Source: an uncultured Planctomycetia bacterium
Lineage (GTDB): Bacteria > Planctomycetota > Phycisphaerae > FEN-1346 > JAACEH01
Direction of reading: 5' to 3'
NCBI GenBank assembly: GCA_903929765.1
Contig: CAIYVX010000082.1
Coordinates: forward strand, 16,974 to 80,973
Length of the DNA: 64,000 nt
In this document: in pieces, positions 16,643-61,661 of the stretch
Position numbering within the stretch: the stretch's first letter is position 1
Layout of the letters: each line of letters starts with the position of its first letter
Notes under the pieces: model-generated
Database searches by the model: none
Told to the model about the DNA's origin: nothing
What the model saw: the letters and a program-made list of their open reading frames with translations, nothing else
Made by a program: the position numbers and the translations under genes

Positions 16643-16700
16643 CCGGGTGCGCGGCCGAAACCGCTCACCCGGCCTTTTTCTCCAGGCCAACCTCTCCCAA
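16643..16700. terminator. Stem-loop structures in the rplL-rpoB intergenic region (candidate attenuator or processing hairpins)
   Basis: CCGGGTGCGCGGCCGAAACCGCTCACCCGG (16643-16672) is a 7-bp-stem hairpin followed by TTTTT on the plus strand. An adjacent CCTCTC/GAGAGG hairpin lies at about 16682-16700. Many bacteria have a partial terminator at this position. The T-run is on the antisense side, so the orientation and function are uncertain. Confidence 0.25.
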
Positions 16701-16724
16701 GAGAGAGGGGTACAATCGCCGCGA

Positions 16725-34147: not shown

Positions 34148-34196
34148 CAGTGGCACGGGCATCTTGCCCGTGAGTCTTAGGGGCATCTTGCCCCTG
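34148..34196 (+). repeat. REP family A, copy 1 (double hairpin)
   Basis: CAGTGGCACGGGCATCTTGCCCGTGAGTCTTAGGGGCATCTTGCCCCTG is two 7-bp-stem hairpins (CACGGGC/GCCCGTG and AGGGGC/GCCCCT). The consensus recurs 8 times in the window. Confidence 0.7.
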
Positions 34197-37661: not shown

Positions 37662-37710
37662 GGGTGCCACACTTTGTCCCGACCGCCTTTTGGTCGGGCA
37701 AAGTGTGTGG
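37662..37710 (+). repeat. REP family H, copy 2 (RAYT-1 flank)
   Basis: GGGTGCCACACTTTGTCCCGACCGCCTTTTGGTCGGGCAAAGTGTGTGG lies 18 nt downstream of the RAYT-1 stop. Confidence 0.75.
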
Positions 37711-37727: not shown

Positions 37728-38264
37728 TCAGACCGGAAGAATATCCATCTCTAAACCTTCATGTCGTTCGTACCACGCGGCACTACTCCAGCGCCAGTCC
37801 GCGACCGACTCGACCAGGCCTCGCCGCACCGGATTATTGTGAATGTAATTGAGCTTCTCATAGAGTTCTTCCCGGCTTGTGATATTCCTATCATAACCAC
37901 CTCCTCCCAGCCAGAAGTGCGGCCTTCCCTGAGCGTCGGTGATCCGAGAGAGAATGGGGGCGTTCAACTCGCGCCACCGAGCGAGAACATCTTTCGAGAA
38001 CGGGCGCTTCAGGGCGTGAAGAATAGCCGTGACGGTAAAGTCAGGGAGGTCAGGTGTCAGAAGCAGGTGGAAATGCTCCGGCATAACGACCCAGGCGTAG
38101 AGGGCAAAGTCCGTCTGCCGCCGGACAAAAGACAACCGGTCTACGAAGGCGTCCTTGACGCGATCACTCTTGAACAGCGGCAACCGGCCGTAGCAGGAAC
38201 AAGTCAGGTAGCGAACATGGTTTGGCAACTCGTAGCGTTTAAGAGTTCGACGATTGTCGCTCAT
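37728..38264 (-). CDS. REP-associated tyrosine transposase (RAYT; IS200/Y1-transposase-like HUH enzyme)
   Basis: MSDNRRTLKRYELPNHVRYLTCSCYGRLPLF...LYAWVVMPEHFHLLLTP (HuH motif)...HFWLGGGGYDRNITSREELYEKLNYIHNNPVRRGLVESVADWRWSS (Tyr motif). It is collinear with E. coli RayT/YafM as I recall it. The start is the internal ATG; the upstream part of the track ORF is just the REP translated. Confidence 0.8.
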   Translation of the reverse strand: MSDNRRTLKRYELPNHVRYLTCSCYGRLPLFKSDRVKDAFVDRLSFVRRQTDFALYAWVVMPEHFHLLLTPDLPDFTVTAILHALKRPFSKDVLARWRELNAPILSRITDAQGRPHFWLGGGGYDRNITSREELYEKLNYIHNNPVRRGLVESVADWRWSSAAWYERHEGLEMDILPV

Positions 38265-38324: not shown

Positions 38325-38371
38325 CACACACTTTGCCCGGCATACTGCCGCCGGGACAAAGTGTGGCACCC
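38325..38371 (-). repeat. REP family H, copy 3 (RAYT-1 flank, inverted)
   Basis: CACACACTTTGCCCGGCATACTGCCGCCGGGACAAAGTGTGGCACCC is the reverse complement of the copy-2 pattern. The two copies form inverted REPs around RAYT-1. Confidence 0.75.
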
Positions 38372-39616: not shown

Positions 39617-39666
39617 CAGTGGCACGGGCGTCCCGCCCGTGAGTCCCACGGCCATCTTGGCCGTGG
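39617..39666 (+). repeat. REP family A, copy 2
   Basis: CAGTGGCACGGGCGTCCCGCCCGTGAGTCCCACGGCCATCTTGGCCGTGG lies between the GH57 and glycogen-synthase genes. Confidence 0.7.
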
Positions 39667-46295: not shown

Positions 46296-46352
46296 GTTTC
46301 TTCACCCCTCTCCCTCGGGAGAGGGTGGCCCGAAGGGCCGGGTGAGGGGTTA
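46296..46352 (+). repeat. Palindromic element family B, copy 2
   Basis: GTTTCTTCACCCCTCTCCCTCGGGAGAGGGTGGCCCGAAGGGCCGGGTGAGGGGTTAG is near-identical to the copy inside valS (56208-56272). Confidence 0.7.
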
Positions 46353-46543: not shown

Positions 46544-46592
46544 CGTGGCACGGGCTTCCCGCCCGTGAGTCGCAGGGGCATCTTGCCCCTGT
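46544..46592 (+). repeat. REP family A, copy 3
   Basis: CGTGGCACGGGCTTCCCGCCCGTGAGTCGCAGGGGCATCTTGCCCCTGTG is present, and its flanking TGCCGTTGCCGCTTCAC... context also matches copy 8. Confidence 0.7.
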
Positions 46593-53647: not shown

Positions 53648-54133
53648 ATGACCAAAACTTCTTTCACCATCCGCCCCGCCACTCCCGCCGACGCCGACGC
53701 CGTCGTCGCCATGTGGCAGATCATGGTGGACCAGCACCAGGCTTACGATCGCCTGCGCTGGCGCATGAAGCCCAACGCCCCCGCCCTTTGGCGCAAGTTC
53801 TTTCTGGAAGTCCTGGCCAAAAAAGATTCCTTCGCCCTGGTCGCCGTCAACGCCACTGGTCAACCCATTGGCTATCTCGTCGCCAACATCGCCGCTCCGC
53901 CGCCGATCGTGGCCATCCGCTCCCGCGGCGATATCGGCGATCTCTTTGTCCGAAAAGAATATCGCCGCCACGGTCTCGGCCGCCGACTAATGAACCACGC
54001 CGTCAAAATCATGAAGAGCCGCGGCGCCGAATATATCAGCCTCTACGTTGCCGCCTCGAACCGCAGCGCCGTCCGTTTCTACAAAAACCTCGGCCTGAAA
54101 CCGCTCGTGCTGCAGATGTGCAATAAGTTATAA
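53648..54133 (+). CDS. GNAT-family N-acetyltransferase
   Basis: The 161-aa product carries the acetyl-CoA-binding motif RRHGLGRRLM and the GNAT beta-strand pattern. Confidence 0.85.
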   Translation: MTKTSFTIRPATPADADAVVAMWQIMVDQHQAYDRLRWRMKPNAPALWRKFFLEVLAKKDSFALVAVNATGQPIGYLVANIAAPPPIVAIRSRGDIGDLFVRKEYRRHGLGRRLMNHAVKIMKSRGAEYISLYVAASNRSAVRFYKNLGLKPLVLQMCNKL

Positions 54134-54139
54134 TGAAAC

Positions 54140-54186
54140 GTGCCACGGCGGGTCTTGTCCCGCCGTGCGAATGCGGGCCGACGCTC
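54140..54186. repeat. Hairpin element family C, copy 1 (immediately upstream of valS)
   Basis: GTGCCACGGCGGGTCTTGTCCCGCCGTGCGAATGCGGGCCGACGC has the stem CACGGCGGG/CCCGCCGTG. Its partner copy is 66 nt downstream of the valS stop. Confidence 0.65.
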
Positions 54187-54207
54187 GCTAAAAGGATAAT
54201 TGTCCCG

Positions 54208-57200
54208 ATGACCCAACCCGAAACCAACTCCACCAACCCCACCGACCTTCCCACCCAATACGACCCCAAGCTCTTCGAAAAGGAAGTTTACGCCTTCTGG
54301 GAATCTCATAACTATTTCCACGCCGACCCCGCGCGCGGCGGAAAACCCTACGCCATAGCCATCCCGCCCCCCAACGTCACTGCCGCCCTCCACCTCGGCC
54401 ACGCCCTCAACAACACCCTTCAGGACATCCTCGTCCGCTGGCGCCGCCAGCAGGGCTACAACACCCTCTGGATGCCCGGCACCGACCACGCCGGCATCGC
54501 CACCCAGGCCGTCATCGAAAAACGTCTCCTCGCCAACGAAGGCCTGCGCCGCAAAGACCTCGACCCCGACCCCGCCGTCGCCCGCACCAAGTTCGTCGCC
54601 CGCGTTCAGGCCTGGAAAGACGAGTACGAAGCCCGCATCCTCGGCCAGCTCAAAGCCATGGGCTGCTCCTGCGACTGGGACCGCACCCGCTTCACCATGG
54701 ACGAAACCTGCGCCGCCGCCGTCCGCGAAGCCTTTTTCCGCCTCTTCAAAGACGGCCTCATCTATCGCGGCAAACGCCTCGTCAACTGGGACCCCGCCAC
54801 CCAGACCGTCCTCGCCGACGACGAAGTCGAACACGAAACCGTCCAGGGAAATTTCTATTACCTCCGCTACCCGCTGGCTGAAGCCGTTGCTTTACCCAGT
54901 GACACGGGCATCTTGCCCGTGAGTCCCACGGGCGTCCCGCCCGTGGCCGCCGTTTCTTCTTCACCCAGTGGCACGGGCGTCCCGCCCGTGAGTGCCACGG
55001 GCATCTTGCCCGTGGAAGACTTGCCTGTAATCAAGCGTCAGGGTGCCAACCTGCCTCACTGGACTCAATCCGGCGCAACCTATGCCATCACGTTCCGGTT
55101 GGCCGATTCTCTCCCCGCCCAAGTCATTGAATCATGGAAGCATCACCGGGAAGAAATCGAACAAAGAGCCAACTCCCAAGGCCGCAAGATGACCTGGCAG
55201 GAGCGTAAGGAACTCCACCAACTGTACGAATCCCGCATCGACAGCATGCTGAACACCGGTCTTGGGGCGTGTTATCTCAACAATCCGGAAGTAGCCGAAA
55301 TCGTCCAGGACGCACTGAAACATTTCCACGGCGAGCGATACGAACTGATCGCCTGGTCACTCATGCCCAACCACATCCATGCCGTTCTCCGTCCTCTGGG
55401 AGAACACCATCTCGCGGACATCATCCACTCCTGGAAGTCCTTCACGGCTAAGCAAGCCAACAAAATTCTTGGACGAGAAGGACAGTTCTGGATGGAGGAA
55501 TACTACGACCACCTGATTCGCGACGAAGAGGATTTTGGCCATGCGGTAATGTACGCGATCAGCCATCCGGAGCGCGCCGGCCTGGCCGACTGGCCGTGGG
55601 TCGGACTGCAAAAAACGGCACAGGGGCAAGATGCCCCTGCGACTCACGGGCAAGATGCCCGTGCCACTGTTATAACACACATCACCGTCGCCACCACCCG
55701 ACCCGAAACCATGCTCGGCGACACCGCCGTCGCCATGAACCCCCGCGACCCCCGCGCCGCCGCTCTCGTCGGCCAGATGGTTCGCCTCCCCATCGTCGGC
55801 CGCCTCATCCCCATCATCGCCGACGAACACGTCGTCCTCCCCAACCCCGAAGGCGACGAAAAAGCCCGCTTCTCCACCGGCTTCCTCAAAGTCACACCCG
55901 CCCACGACCCCAACGACTGGGACATCGGCCAGCGCCACAAACTCCCGGCCATCAACGTCATGGCCCCCGACGGCTCAATCTCCGACAAGCACGGCTGGAC
56001 CGACTGGGACGCCGTCAAAAATCCTGATGTCGAAAAATTCATTGGCCTCGACCGCTTCATAGCCCGAAAGAAGATCGTCGACTGGTTCGGCGAAAACAAT
56101 CTTCTCGAAGAAGTCCGCCCCTACGCCCACGAAGTCGGCCACTCCTACCGCAGCCATGTCCCCATCGAACCCTACCTCTCCGACCAGTGGTTCATCGCCG
56201 TGAAAAAGCCGTTTCTTCTTCACCCCTCTCCCTCGGGAGAGGGTGGCCCTTCAGGGCCGGGTGAGGGGTTGAGGCCCTTGCCCGTTCCGACCGCGCCCGA
56301 ACTGATCCCCGGCACCGACGTGCCAGTTAATTCTTTAGCCGGCTTGGCCATCAAGCCGCTCCTCGACGGCAAACTCAAATTCGTCCCCGAGCGCTACGCC
56401 CGCAACTACCAGAACTGGCTCGAAAACCTTCGCGACTGGCCCATCTCCCGCCAACTCTGGTGGGGACACCGAATTCCAGTGTGGCAAGGAATCACTGAAT
56501 TTGGATCGAAGGTGTTTGAGGGCAAGGACACAGCAAAATCTCCATTCGGAATAGCCGGCGTAGAAGGAATACACATACAGCACAGAGATGAGGCTGGAAA
56601 ACTGGGACTGTATGCCTCGGTACCGCCCGGCCATCCAGACAAGGAAAAGAAACTGGAGGAGGCTGGCCTAACCCGCGACCCCGACGTCCTCGACACCTGG
56701 TTCTCTTCCGGCCTCTGGCCCATCTCAACCCTCGGTTGGCCGGAACAAACCGACGCGCTGAAATTCTATTACCCCACCTCCGTCCTCTGCACCGCCCGCG
56801 AAATCATCACCCTCTGGGTCAGCCGCATGGTCATGTTCGGCGAATATTTCCAGCACGACCTCCCCTTCCGCACCGTCTACATCCACGCCATGATTCAGGA
56901 CGGCGAAGGCCGCAAAATGTCCAAGAGCCTCGGCAACGGCATCGACCCCCTCGACATCATCGACTCTCACGGGGCCGACGCCATGCGCTTCACCATCGCC
57001 GCCATGACCACCGAAACTCAGGACGTCCGCATGCCGGTCGAAACCCTCACCCTCCGCGACGGCCGCACCGCCAACTCCAGCCCCAAGTTCGACCTCGGCC
57101 GCAACTTCTGCAACAAGCTCTGGAACGCCTCCCGCTTCGCCTTCATGAACCTCGCCGAACTTTCCCCCGAGCCGTTCGACCGCGCAAAAATGCTCCTCGA

Positions 57201-58053
57201 AGACCGCTGGATTCTCTCCCGCCTCACCACCACCGTCGAAGCCGCCACACAGGCCCTCGAAAAGTTCCAGTTCCACGACGCCACCGACGTGATCTACTCT
57301 TTCTTCTGGAACGATTTCTGCGACTGGTACCTCGAAATCACCAAGCCGCGCATGCGCGACGCCGCCACCAGAGCCGTCCCCCAACGCATCCTCGCCTACG
57401 CCCTCGACCGTCTCCTGCGGCTCCTCCACCCCTTCGTCCCGCACATTACCGAGCACCTCTGGACCCACTTCGCCCGCCTCGTCCCCGACCGCTCGCTCGA
57501 CTCTGCGGCCCCCGCCCCACCCGCCGAAGCCTGCATCATCGCCCTTTGGCCCGAGCCGGTCGCCGCTTTTTACGCGCCCCAGGCCGAAACCGATTTCGCC
57601 CTCGTCCAGGCCGTCATCCGCGCCATCCGCAACATCCGTTCGCGCATGAACATCGCCCCGCGCGTCCCGCTCCGCGCCGTCATCCGCTCGAGCGCCGCCG
57701 CCACCGCCCGCCTCTCCGCCGCCGCCGACACCATCCGCCACCTCGCCGCCCTCGAATCTCTTGAGGCCGACCCTGCCGCCGAAAAGCCCAAAGCCTCCGC
57801 CGCCGAAATCGTCGAAGGCCTGGAAGTCTTCGTCCCCCTCGCCGGCGTCATCGACCTCGCCACCGAGCGCGACCGCCTCGCCAAACTCTCGGCCGAGAAG
57901 GATAAGGCCCTCGACAGCGTCCGCAAAAAACTCTCGAACGAAAACTTCGTCGCCCGCGCCAAGCCCGAAATCGTCGCCAGCGAACGCGACCGCGCCGCCA
58001 AGCTCGAATCCGAACTCGCCGCCCTCACAGCCAACATGAAAGATTTGGAATAG
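54208..58053 (+). CDS. valS: Valyl-tRNA synthetase carrying two in-frame repeat-derived insertions (one is a complete REP-RAYT-REP unit)
   Basis: The HIGH (HLGH), KMSKS, TTRPETMLGD (CP1), WCISRQ-like (WPISRQLWWGHRIP) and anticodon-binding regions are present, as is the C-terminal coiled coil. The ORF is uninterrupted for 1282 codons from the chosen ATG, versus about 880-1000 aa typical. Confidence 0.93.
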   Translation: MTQPETNSTNPTDLPTQYDPKLFEKEVYAFWESHNYFHADPARGGKPYAIAIPPPNVTAALHLGHALNNTLQDILVRWRRQQGYNTLWMPGTDHAGIATQAVIEKRLLANEGLRRKDLDPDPAVARTKFVARVQAWKDEYEARILGQLKAMGCSCDWDRTRFTMDETCAAAVREAFFRLFKDGLIYRGKRLVNWDPATQTVLADDEVEHETVQGNFYYLRYPLAEAVALPSDTGILPVSPTGVPPVAAVSSSPSGTGVPPVSATGILPVEDLPVIKRQGANLPHWTQSGATYAITFRLADSLPAQVIESWKHHREEIEQRANSQGRKMTWQERKELHQLYESRIDSMLNTGLGACYLNNPEVAEIVQDALKHFHGERYELIAWSLMPNHIHAVLRPLGEHHLADIIHSWKSFTAKQANKILGREGQFWMEEYYDHLIRDEEDFGHAVMYAISHPERAGLADWPWVGLQKTAQGQDAPATHGQDARATVITHITVATTRPETMLGDTAVAMNPRDPRAAALVGQMVRLPIVGRLIPIIADEHVVLPNPEGDEKARFSTGFLKVTPAHDPNDWDIGQRHKLPAINVMAPDGSISDKHGWTDWDAVKNPDVEKFIGLDRFIARKKIVDWFGENNLLEEVRPYAHEVGHSYRSHVPIEPYLSDQWFIAVKKPFLLHPSPSGEGGPSGPGEGLRPLPVPTAPELIPGTDVPVNSLAGLAIKPLLDGKLKFVPERYARNYQNWLENLRDWPISRQLWWGHRIPVWQGITEFGSKVFEGKDTAKSPFGIAGVEGIHIQHRDEAGKLGLYASVPPGHPDKEKKLEEAGLTRDPDVLDTWFSSGLWPISTLGWPEQTDALKFYYPTSVLCTAREIITLWVSRMVMFGEYFQHDLPFRTVYIHAMIQDGEGRKMSKSLGNGIDPLDIIDSHGADAMRFTIAAMTTETQDVRMPVETLTLRDGRTANSSPKFDLGRNFCNKLWNASRFAFMNLAELSPEPFDRAKMLLEDRWILSRLTTTVEAATQALEKFQFHDATDVIYSFFWNDFCDWYLEITKPRMRDAATRAVPQRILAYALDRLLRLLHPFVPHITEHLWTHFARLVPDRSLDSAAPAPPAEACIIALWPEPVAAFYAPQAETDFALVQAVIRAIRNIRSRMNIAPRVPLRAVIRSSAAATARLSAAADTIRHLAALESLEADPAAEKPKASAAEIVEGLEVFVPLAGVIDLATERDRLAKLSAEKDKALDSVRKKLSNENFVARAKPEIVASERDRAAKLESELAALTANMKDLE
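54897..55669 (+). mobile_element. REP-RAYT-REP composite embedded in frame in valS
   Basis: Two tandem family-A REP doublets (54897-54946, 54966-55015) are followed by a RAYT-like HUH domain (~55012-55605: LPHWTQSGATYAITFRL...AWSLMPNHIHAVL...FWMEEYYDHLIRDEEDFGHAVMYAISHPERAGLADWPWVG) and one inverted family-A REP (55616-55669). The region has no stop codon and no ATG; it is contiguous with the flanking ValRS sequence. Confidence 0.8.
56208..56272 (+). repeat. Palindromic element family B, copy 4, in frame inside valS
   Basis: CCGTTTCTTCTTCACCCCTCTCCCTCGGGAGAGGGTGGCCCTTCAGGGCCGGGTGAGGGGTTGAGG is translated as PFLLHPSPSGEGGPSGPGEGLR. It sits within a ~40-aa insertion relative to the E. coli ValRS region DQWFV...FVPKQY. 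Confidence 0.75.
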
Positions 58054-58072
58054 GTGGACTCACATCCGTCGA

Positions 58073-58112
58073 ACGGGTGGCATGGCGGCCGTCGTTTGCC
58101 GCCATGTTTCGC
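58073..58112. repeat. Palindromic element family D, copy 2
   Basis: GAACGGGTGGCATGGCGGCCGTCGTTTGCCGCCATGTTTCGCC starts 20 nt after the valS stop. Confidence 0.65.
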
Positions 58113-58118
58113 CCCGGG

Positions 58119-58160
58119 TGTGCCACGGCGGGCTTGCCCCGCCGTGCGAATGCCCGCCAA
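58119..58160. repeat. Hairpin element family C, copy 2 (immediately downstream of valS)
   Basis: GTGTGCCACGGCGGGCTTGCCCCGCCGTGCGAATGCCCGCCA matches copy 1 at 54140-54186. Confidence 0.65.
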
Positions 58161-58215
58161 CCCCGGTTGCTCTAAAACGTGTTTTGATTCTTCTTTTTCT
58201 CTTTCCGCAACTCCC

Positions 58216-59628: not shown

Positions 59629-59677
59629 CAGTGGCACGGGCGTCTCGCCCGTGAGTCGCAGGGGCATCTTGCCCCTG
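59629..59677 (+). repeat. REP family A, copy 7
   Basis: CAGTGGCACGGGCGTCTCGCCCGTGAGTCGCAGGGGCATCTTGCCCCTG lies between the histidine-kinase and response-regulator genes. Confidence 0.7.
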
Positions 59678-61611: not shown

Positions 61612-61661
61612 CGTGGCACGGGCGTCCCGCCCGTGAGTCGCAGGGGCATCTTGCCCCTGTG
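61612..61661 (+). repeat. REP family A, copy 8
   Basis: CGTGGCACGGGCGTCCCGCCCGTGAGTCGCAGGGGCATCTTGCCCCTGTG. Confidence 0.7.

Follow-up and report, generated by a model that had tools for sequence, protein, structure and literature searches.

The textbook picture of the REP-associated tyrosine transposases (RAYTs), the enzymes that accompany repetitive extragenic palindromic (REP) sequences, is one of domesticated, single-copy, vertically inherited and intergenic transposases. Known RAYTs are free-standing genes with a start and a stop codon of their own, usually intergenic, and have been described as vertical single copies. In-frame REPs within genes, even inside tnpA_REP, have already been documented (PMC6006769, PMC3733652), and the REP-bearing open reading frames (ORFs) include those of tRNA synthetases (Di Nocera et al. 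2013, PMC3733652); 'unexpectedly long proteins' were discarded by Quentin et al. as gene fusions or annotation errors (PMC6006769). In the literature searched in full text, no account was found of a host gene that contains an in-frame RAYT. Here, a 64-kb stretch of the genome of an uncultured Planctomycetia bacterium (assembly GCA_903929765.1, contig CAIYVX010000082.1, positions 16,974 to 80,973; hereafter the window) was analysed, in which a complete REP-RAYT-REP cassette lies in frame within valS, the gene encoding valyl-tRNA synthetase (ValRS), and the RAYT reads as an internal domain of an essential enzyme. This cassette is probably a translated, tolerated, site-specific selfish element that uses essential genes as safe havens.

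The embedded element resembled the REP/RAYT systems (TnpA_REP, REPtron) of Proteobacteria, such as E. coli YafM (4ER8), in its HUH + Tyr Y1 fold, in the NH[VI]H and WQ motifs and, at the level of the family, the Y-x-x-x-N-P signature (H for N in the window copy), and in its inverted GT[AG]G-footed flanking REPs with intergenic doublets of the same family. Unlike known RAYTs, it formed host-site-specific lineages that were exchanged horizontally. The host gene and the parts of the cassette are as follows.

54208..58053, forward strand: valS, the valyl-tRNA synthetase host gene, 1281 aa from the ATG at 54208, with HLGH, KMSKS and the Pfam domains
~54892-55669: the REP-RAYT-REP cassette, made up of REP doublets with GT[AG]G feet around a class-2 Y1 HUH transposase domain
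54897..54945, forward strand: left REP doublet 1, with hairpins at 54903-54921 and 54927-54945 and a GTGA foot at 54899-54902, translated as SDTGILPVSPTGVPPV
54966..55014, forward strand: left REP doublet 2, with hairpins at 54972-54990 and 54996-55014 and a GTGG foot, translated as SGTGVPPVSATGILPV
55033..55599, forward strand: RAYT core domain of 189 aa (KRQGANLPHW...ADWPW), a class-2 Y1 HUH transposase, Pfam PF01797
55372..55380, forward strand: HUH motif, the His-Ile-His of PNHIH, with both His kept in 101/101 embedded and 103/103 free copies
55552..55554, forward strand: codon of the catalytic Tyr in MYAISHP, the Y-x-x-x-N-P motif with H here in place of N
55621..55669, reverse strand: right REP doublet, inverted, with hairpins at 55621-55639 and 55645-55663 and a foot that reads CCAC on the forward strand, translated as QGQDAPATHGQDARAT
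55690..55710, forward strand: ATTRPET, which is the Thr-rich motif in the editing domain (CP1) of ValRS, seven codons past the cassette and aligning with ATVRPET in 1GAX of T. thermophilus

The valS frame ran without interruption from 54133, where the ORF opens, to 58053 on the forward strand, and the product from the ATG at 54208 was 100% identical to the public protein P0121. The whole protein matched the Pfam families tRNA-synt_1 (2.6e-121), Anticodon_1 and Val_tRNA-synt_C, with an internal match to PF01797 (Y1_Tnp); the class I catalytic core, the anticodon-binding domain, the C-terminal arm and the HLGH, KMSKS and ATTRPET motifs were all present. The original prediction, made from the letters of the DNA, had been of an unbroken valS holding a complete in-frame REP-RAYT-REP unit at the entrance of connective peptide 1 (CP1), and the open ORF, the Pfam matches and the REP hairpins agreed with it. 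The distance from DDEVEH to ATTRPET was 285 aa in the window ValRS vs 30 aa in insert-free relatives, a net gain of 255 aa that matches the predicted length of the insertion. The closest insert-free relative, P0202, matched 1GAX at E 8.7e-80, and the insertion point corresponded to the GGG turn of 'YEVE-GGG-FIEIATVRPET' in T. thermophilus ValRS 1GAX, a β-hairpin turn directly before the Thr-rich editing motif. By this alignment the cassette is predicted to occupy the turn of the first β-hairpin of the ValRS editing domain, at the entrance of CP1. The ValRS/REP/RAYT junction peptides of the window protein lie around LAEAVALPSDTGILPV and HGQDARATVITHITVATTRPETM.

Two forward REP doublets upstream of the RAYT and one inverted doublet downstream had been predicted, a layout borne out both by the coordinates and by the outer REP arms of the cassette, which are 49 nt long and 86% complementary. 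In 22/22 filled loci examined (the window and 21 others) the cassette ended in 5' GT[AG]G-hairpin ... hairpin-C[CT]AC 3', and the junction peptides were REP-encoded and variable among loci. With a spacing of 24 nt (8 codons) between REP units, no REP array shifts the frame. The RAYT had no start codon at its N-terminus and no stop of its own; of the claim that the unit contains neither ATG nor stop, the second half stood, whereas in-frame ATGs do occur within the core (KMTW, SMLN, LMPNH, WMEE, VMYA). The GTG at 55012 and the TTG at 55021, put forward as candidate RAYT starts, were not conserved across loci, nor was any other start codon found to be conserved internally across the cassette loci, and no internal promoter-like (sigma-70-like) site was found in the cassette. 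Either the RAYT once had a start and a stop and has lost them, or it was without them from the outset. Third-position C (C3) in the window was 0.39-0.47 in the cassette vs 0.71-0.79 in valS, which represents foreign codon usage. The inverted doublet in valS also scored as a minus-strand terminator-like site (55641-55619, then TTTTTT).

The hairpin CACGGGC-N5-GCCCGTG was matched 24 times in the window, against 0.07 matches expected. In addition to those of the cassette, five intergenic doublets of the same REP family, each identified by its hairpin and a match to the consensus, were located.

34154..34196, forward strand: intergenic REP doublet
39623..39665, forward strand: intergenic REP doublet
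46549..46591, forward strand: intergenic REP doublet
59635..59677, forward strand: intergenic REP doublet
61617..61659, forward strand: intergenic REP doublet

These five share the consensus, the GTGG foot and the 24-nt spacing of the cassette REPs, and cognate REPs are therefore dispersed in the window. All five were in forward orientation, with hairpins spaced 24 nt apart and a T-rich tail, and adjoined minus-strand ORFs.

The insert alone scored 26.7 bits against PF01797 (cut-off 23), and 23.6 bits within the whole protein, so that profile searching placed it in the Y1_Tnp family as anticipated. The motifs NH[VI]H, WQ and, with H for N in the window copy, Y-x-x-x-N-P assign the embedded RAYT to class 2 as defined by Quentin et al. 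2018 (PMC6006769). The catalytic motifs had been described as intact, and both PNHIH and the Tyr of MYAISHP were located; the catalytic Tyr was present in 100/101 valS-embedded copies. Core length was exactly 189 aa in 100/101 embedded copies, with zero indels. In seven informative pairs the RAYT core gave dN/dS values of 0.144, 0.194, 0.082, 0.094, 0.099, 0.067 and 0.061, which amounts to purifying selection (0.06-0.19) and falls inside the 0.00-0.20 span of the ValRS segments.

A search of a word-indexed database with the RAYT core returned 1590 homologues, mostly free-standing proteins of ~200 aa that were 50-72% identical to it, and the source name of most of the free-standing ones was 'REP element-mobilizing transposase RayT'. 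Among 1.84 billion cluster representatives there were 9899 matches at E <= 1e-3. The best solved structure by sequence was 4er8, E. coli TnpA_REP (E 8.8e-6). An AlphaFold2 model of the RAYT had a mean predicted local distance difference test score (pLDDT) of 82, with the core above 90, and when it was compared with known folds using Foldseek the top match was again 4er8_A (E 1.7e-7); the best 30 matches in the PDB were all TnpA_REP or IS200/IS605 TnpA, the IS200/IS605 transposases lying at E 1e-5 to 1e-3. Structure prediction, which the original prediction had proposed, is consistent with an autonomous RAYT domain modelled with confidence (core pLDDT >90), flanked by REP-encoded segments with pLDDT below 50-60, which indicates predicted disorder.

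A free-standing canonical RAYT at 37731-38264 on the reverse strand scored 100.3 bits against the NCBIfam RAYT equivalog NF047646, above the cut-off. It had been said to be collinear with the embedded RAYT, which was confirmed at 28% identity. It is bracketed by inverted 17-mers (GGGACAAAGTGTGGCAC at 37664-37680 and 38353-38369), its own terminal repeats. As the two RAYTs are only 28% identical and the free-standing one has distinct terminal repeats, the genome carries two unrelated RAYT systems.

Except for the exact copy of the query, the 120 best ValRS clusters in a whole-protein search shared 52-67% identity with it. In 118/120 of them an insert of 244-346 aa with PNHxH intact separated DDEVEH from ATTRPET. 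The carriers included many Phycisphaerae metagenome-assembled genomes (MAGs) and the cultured Sedimentisphaerales isolate Anaerobaca lacustris (P0160, GCA_030012215.1, valS on JASCXX010000013.1). Among GTDB species representatives, searched as raw DNA without annotation, the cassette was found in 14 valS loci, 14/14 of them in frame and stop-free, and ~58 GTDB representatives had the canonical empty loop EPVEIDGKxxEHVTV. Orthologue comparison thus showed that relatives share the segment at the same loop. These data bear directly on the question of whether an assembly chimera or mis-join had placed the RAYT inside valS, a concern raised by the apparently metagenomic type of the assembly and by the ability of REP repeats to confuse assemblers. 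The same architecture was present in >130 independent assemblies from different pipelines, plus one isolate genome, and a mis-join would not keep the frame on both sides every time; a chimeric contig, one of the two alternatives in the original prediction, is therefore refuted and can be given almost no weight. The other alternative, that the cell tolerates the insert, gains support from the 118/120 clusters and the 14 GTDB loci, in which the in-frame architecture suggests a tolerated insertion. In P0220, a 1323-aa ValRS from a Planctomycetota MAG, the CP1 site was empty and a complete REP-RAYT-REP was in frame at ~915-1140, in the C-terminal part.

With 64 kb of the genome visible, it might also be supposed that the interrupted gene is a decaying or redundant valS paralogue that was hit by a transposon while a second valS does the work. 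The gene order rho-valS-BFN-lspA, that of the orthologous valS locus, was found in carriers and non-carriers; dN/dS was 0.00-0.11 in the flanking valS sequence and 0.00-0.20 over the ValRS segments overall. The HLGH, KMSKS and editing motifs were intact, codon bias was high (C3 ~0.7-0.8) and the frame was open in >100 lineages, which together make a redundant paralogue very improbable.

Other parts of valS were also variable. A second, different palindromic repeat, CCCTCTCCC-TC-GGGAGAGGG, was in frame at 56222-56269 (outer arm 56259-56269), where it is translated as HPSPSGEGGPSGPGEGLRP; there is an exact intergenic copy at 46306-46325 and a weak match at 16690-16709, and at this point relatives show other repeat-like peptides or nothing (e.g. 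P0130, P0122). ValRS residues ~730-815 (window ~56400-56650) form a lineage-variable insertion of low C3 codon bias between the RIPVW and DPDVLDTWF blocks, which in relatives is very different and sometimes far longer (P0124, P0143, P0239); no RAYT/REP signature was noticed there.

In a tree of 336 RAYT cores, 100/103 valS-resident RAYTs fell into one clade, within which three outsiders were nested: P0001 (nadE), P0243 (Type ISP enzyme) and P0002. With valS residence as the character, the Fitch count was 5, compared with 88 for shuffled labels; for a subsample bootstrapped 40 times it was 1-8, compared with 37 for shuffled labels. A small second valS group (P0204, P0211, P0244) adjoined the DinG-resident RAYTs, which hints at a second colonization of the valS site. 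The contig that encodes P0001 (L087 3159-5477, JGI 3300043312) carries a RAYT 79% identical to the valS-resident ones, which separates the CN_hydrolase part of nadE from its NAD-synthase part; the RAYT is in frame with the downstream nadE part, and nadE has several frameshifts, from either poor assembly or a decaying gene, and P0001 was taken as a RAYT sequence only.

One clade dominated by valS residents would also be expected if a RAYT-like module had been recruited once into ValRS and inherited vertically as an exapted insertion domain that benefits the synthetase or its host and not itself, for example through nucleic-acid binding, regulation or moonlighting. The strong purifying selection on the RAYT domain, its constant length of 189 aa and its occurrence in the ValRS of >100 lineages are in keeping with this explanation. 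The distribution of the cassette, however, was not that of a vertically inherited domain. In a neighbour-joining tree built from 191 ValRS sequences after removal of the insert, presence and absence of the insert required at least 36 changes (shuffled labels: mean 52, minimum 40). The non-carriers L017 and L032, both with the canonical loop, were 93.7% and 94.3% identical in the ValRS part to the carriers P0122 and P0231, respectively. The ValRS of L031 was 98.3% identical to that of the carrier P0156, and L031 was colinear with the carrier L004 over 21 kb at 92-96% DNA identity; only the 732-bp cassette was absent from L031, with one in-frame REP left. Solo-REP or REP-pair 'scars' in frame at the exact valS cassette site were seen in L031 (10546-10696) and L055 (EPVEIPRGEGVPPLPSLTYVTV; NGTSGVSPEDMLQKINTGGTPVLPEYITV), and could be traces of a lost cassette or, alternatively, landing pads. 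No convincing target motif was found in the empty valS sites, some of which have GTGG in the Pro-Val-Glu codons.

Exchange of the cassette was equally apparent. Pairwise identities of ValRS and RAYT were weakly correlated (r = 0.35), and pairs that were 92-96% identical in ValRS had RAYTs only 56-60% identical (e.g. P0124/P0145, 0.956 vs 0.561). There were two deep RAYT subclades, A and B, ~56-60% identical mutually, with at least 24 switches between them on the ValRS tree. At the DNA level, L001 and L002 were 92-100% identical in the flanks and 30-65% identical inside the cassette, with sharp edges at the outer REPs. Synonymous divergence (dS) of cassette and flanks was compared in four pairs of loci.

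L004/L085: cassette 0.22, flank 0.27-0.50
L005/L086: cassette 0.41, flank 0.70-0.92
L003/L084: cassette 0.60, flank 0.08-0.33
L001/L002: cassette saturated, flank 0.32-0.36

Cassette dS was thus decoupled from flank dS: it fell below the flank value in two pairs, exceeded it in a third and was saturated in the fourth. The valS cassette has been repeatedly lost, cleanly or leaving a solo REP, is polymorphic among Phycisphaerae and has been swapped independently of the flanking gene. The close relatives with a canonical loop, the swapping of cassettes between near-identical valS genes and the decoupled dS all argue against a single recruitment, as do the canonical GT[AG]G REPs kept at both ends in every lineage, the foreign codon usage and the presence of the same RAYT family in frame in dozens of unrelated hosts. 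An exapted domain is consequently unlikely. From these comparisons the cassette is neither a fixed domesticated domain nor vertically inherited, and the RAYT belongs to an old valS-specific lineage that has been gained, lost and swapped among Phycisphaerae, not to a one-off entry.

Two other kinds of element also occupy genes without destroying them. Inteins and homing elements resemble the cassette in residing in frame at a conserved essential-gene site, in forming site-specific lineages, in their patchy distribution with repeated loss and horizontal replacement among alleles, in carrying a nuclease under selection, and in hosts enriched for aminoacyl-tRNA synthetases (aaRSs) and enzymes of DNA and nucleotide metabolism. 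The cassette differs from inteins in having no Hint domain, no conserved splice-junction residues and no sign of removal from the protein, and its nuclease is a single-stranded DNA (ssDNA) HUH enzyme with hairpin ends, not a LAGLIDADG/HNH double-strand homing endonuclease. Precise excision is known for IS200/IS605 relatives, and IStrons pair a transposase of this kind with an intron. The IStrons of Clostridioides difficile (IS200/IS605-type element plus group I intron) are like the cassette in that a Y1-transposase-family element resides in a gene without destroying it, but they are spliced from the mRNA by a ribozyme, whereas the valS cassette has no detectable ribozyme or intron and its reading frame is conserved.

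Removal of the insert by RNA splicing (IStron- or intron-like), by protein splicing or proteolysis, or by precise DNA excision in some cells has in its favour these precedents, the 49-nt inverted REP arms, which could join the valS halves in RNA or ssDNA, and the clean loss of cassettes over evolutionary time. As candidates, an intron, ribozyme or IStron was rejected on an Rfam scan of 54000-58200, which gave 0 matches at E <= 1, and an intein on the lack of a Hint-family Pfam match and of conserved splice-junction residues (N-terminal Cys/Ser; C-terminal His-Asn then Cys/Ser/Thr), the junction residues being variable. Furthermore, the insert was in frame and stop-free in 118/118 called proteins and 14/14 raw loci, variable REP arrays included, for which there would be no reason if it were removed as RNA or DNA. 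Removal before the enzyme functions is on these grounds improbable, less credible even than an exapted domain; proteolytic release of the RAYT from ValRS is possible.

The valS site was one of many fixed positions that this RAYT family occupies in frame in housekeeping genes. In the 150 best representatives of the RAYT family, the RAYT was internal in 42 (>=100 aa of host on both sides), and in a further 39 there was >=100 aa on one side only. Hosts identified by Pfam included AlaRS (two sites), LeuRS (within the editing domain), UvrA, MurC-Ddl, CarB, MetH, IspG/GcpE and XseA, as well as DinG-like helicases, isochorismate synthase (MenF), GcvT, a TPP enzyme, GH38, radical-SAM and PHP proteins, and many Type ISP, Eco57I and MmeI DNA methylases; the match to the host Pfam domain came in two stretches in several of the RAYT-bearing hosts. 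Sua5 and NadE hosts were also seen in the first homologue search. At least one host, a LeuRS of Candidatus Sumerlaeota, was outside Planctomycetota. In the tree, RAYTs clustered by host gene (AlaRS, LeuRS, IspG, GH38, Sua5, Eco57I and DinG), and REP-encoded junction peptides were common to all these host cassettes, those of the N-side reading G-V/I-P/L/S-P and those of the C-side H/R-G-Q/R-D-A..T. The RAYT homologues P0038, P0095, P0103, P0112, P0246 and P0261 were named 'menaquinone-specific isochorismate synthase' by JGI, which is probably an annotation transfer from isochorismate synthases (Chorismate_bind) with a RAYT in frame.

In-frame palindromic repeats, such as the Rickettsia palindromic elements and the REPs in ORFs, are likewise tolerated in surface loops of housekeeping proteins; both kinds of repeat are non-coding and 20-150 bp long, whereas the valS cassette carries an autonomous 189-aa enzyme plus REPs in frame. 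If the cassette is a translated and tolerated selfish element, valS would be transcribed and translated straight through it. Read-through is argued for by the strict open frame through REP arrays of variable length, which would serve no purpose were the insert taken out as DNA or as RNA. The frame-neutral REP units would yield disordered Gly/Pro/Ser/Thr-rich linkers and the RAYT would fold autonomously, as an extra domain hanging off a surface loop, while ValRS would keep working with the RAYT held on flexible linkers in the hairpin turn. Nonsense mutations, frameshifts and imprecise deletions in the cassette would then be lethal, and only in-frame loss could remove it. Because it lies inside an essential open frame, the cassette would be shielded from pseudogenization, in an intein-like safe haven without splicing. 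The RAYT would be catalytically competent and presumably act on cognate REP hairpins in ssDNA, both flanking and scattered, as TnpA_REP does; selection on catalytic residues together with turnover points to a function at the level of the element.

Two routes of exchange may be envisaged, recombination in the highly conserved valS flanks and RAYT-catalysed events at the resident REP feet. The sharp cassette edges favour RAYT-catalysed exchange at the REP feet, and the mosaic dS in the flanks of L003/L084 shows that recombination also happens.

Several points weigh against the interpretation of the cassette as a translated selfish element. The lists of the top 120 and top 80 matches were biased to carriers since the query held the insert, and the trees were all neighbour-joining trees on short alignments. 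Within +/-10 kb of the Sedimentisphaerales loci, REP-type hairpins were almost restricted to the cassette, and an embedded RAYT and dispersed REPs were seen together only in the window analysed here. Against NF047646 the embedded RAYT scored 69.9 bits, below the equivalog cut-off of 80, and in this too it is unlike known RAYTs and represents a divergent RAYT family. The N of Y-x-x-x-N-P, present in 99/101 embedded and 103/103 free copies, is replaced by H in the window copy (Y-A-I-S-H-P). Purifying selection on the RAYT could stem in part from the need to fold well inside ValRS and not from nuclease activity. The AlphaFold2 model of ValRS residues 1-900 with the insert was poor (pLDDT 62.7, pTM 0.38), was taken as a guide to disordered linkers only and leaves the surface-loop geometry a prediction. 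Translation through the cassette and retained aminoacylation are inferred from frame conservation and selection, and a second, uninterrupted valS may lie outside the window.

What emerges is a REP/RAYT system with an intein-like, non-splicing and site-specific lifestyle, with a substantial chance that it represents a new class of element. The IS200/IS605 family shares with it a related HUH fold and subterminal hairpins, and the ssDNA 'peel and paste' chemistry of that family is likely to be ancestral to that of the cassette; unlike IS200/IS605, the RAYT family of the cassette has Y-x-x-x-N-P and not Y-x-x-x-Q, and the cassette lacks TnpB, resides in frame and is not multicopy in the visible sequence. 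A broader reading, which we put forward tentatively and hold to be possible without favouring it, is that REP-RAYT cassettes without start or stop form an unrecognized class of selfish elements, passengers that are translated without being spliced out and that keep to fixed positions in the frames of essential genes. The long-lived RAYT lineage of each site would 'home' between alleles across species by HUH/ssDNA chemistry at the REP feet and not by a double-strand homing endonuclease, with the essential frame shielding it from decay.

These observations suggest that a large RAYT family behaves in a way opposite to the textbook description, having given up its own expression signals to be read within essential enzymes and undergoing horizontal turnover. 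If true, this would add to inteins and self-splicing introns a third kind of residence in an essential gene that leaves the host alive, and one that needs no splicing machinery. It would also provide a natural set of permissive domain-insertion sites in aaRSs and other core enzymes, and examples of an HUH domain, which links covalently to ssDNA, naturally fused to housekeeping proteins. Such cassettes are lost in pipelines that take 'unexpectedly long' transposases or synthetases for artefacts of fusion and drop them. Finally, because carriers, non-carriers and solo-REP scars occur among near-identical valS alleles, the question of whether REP/RAYT systems are selfish or beneficial becomes testable in the cultured Anaerobaca lacustris.

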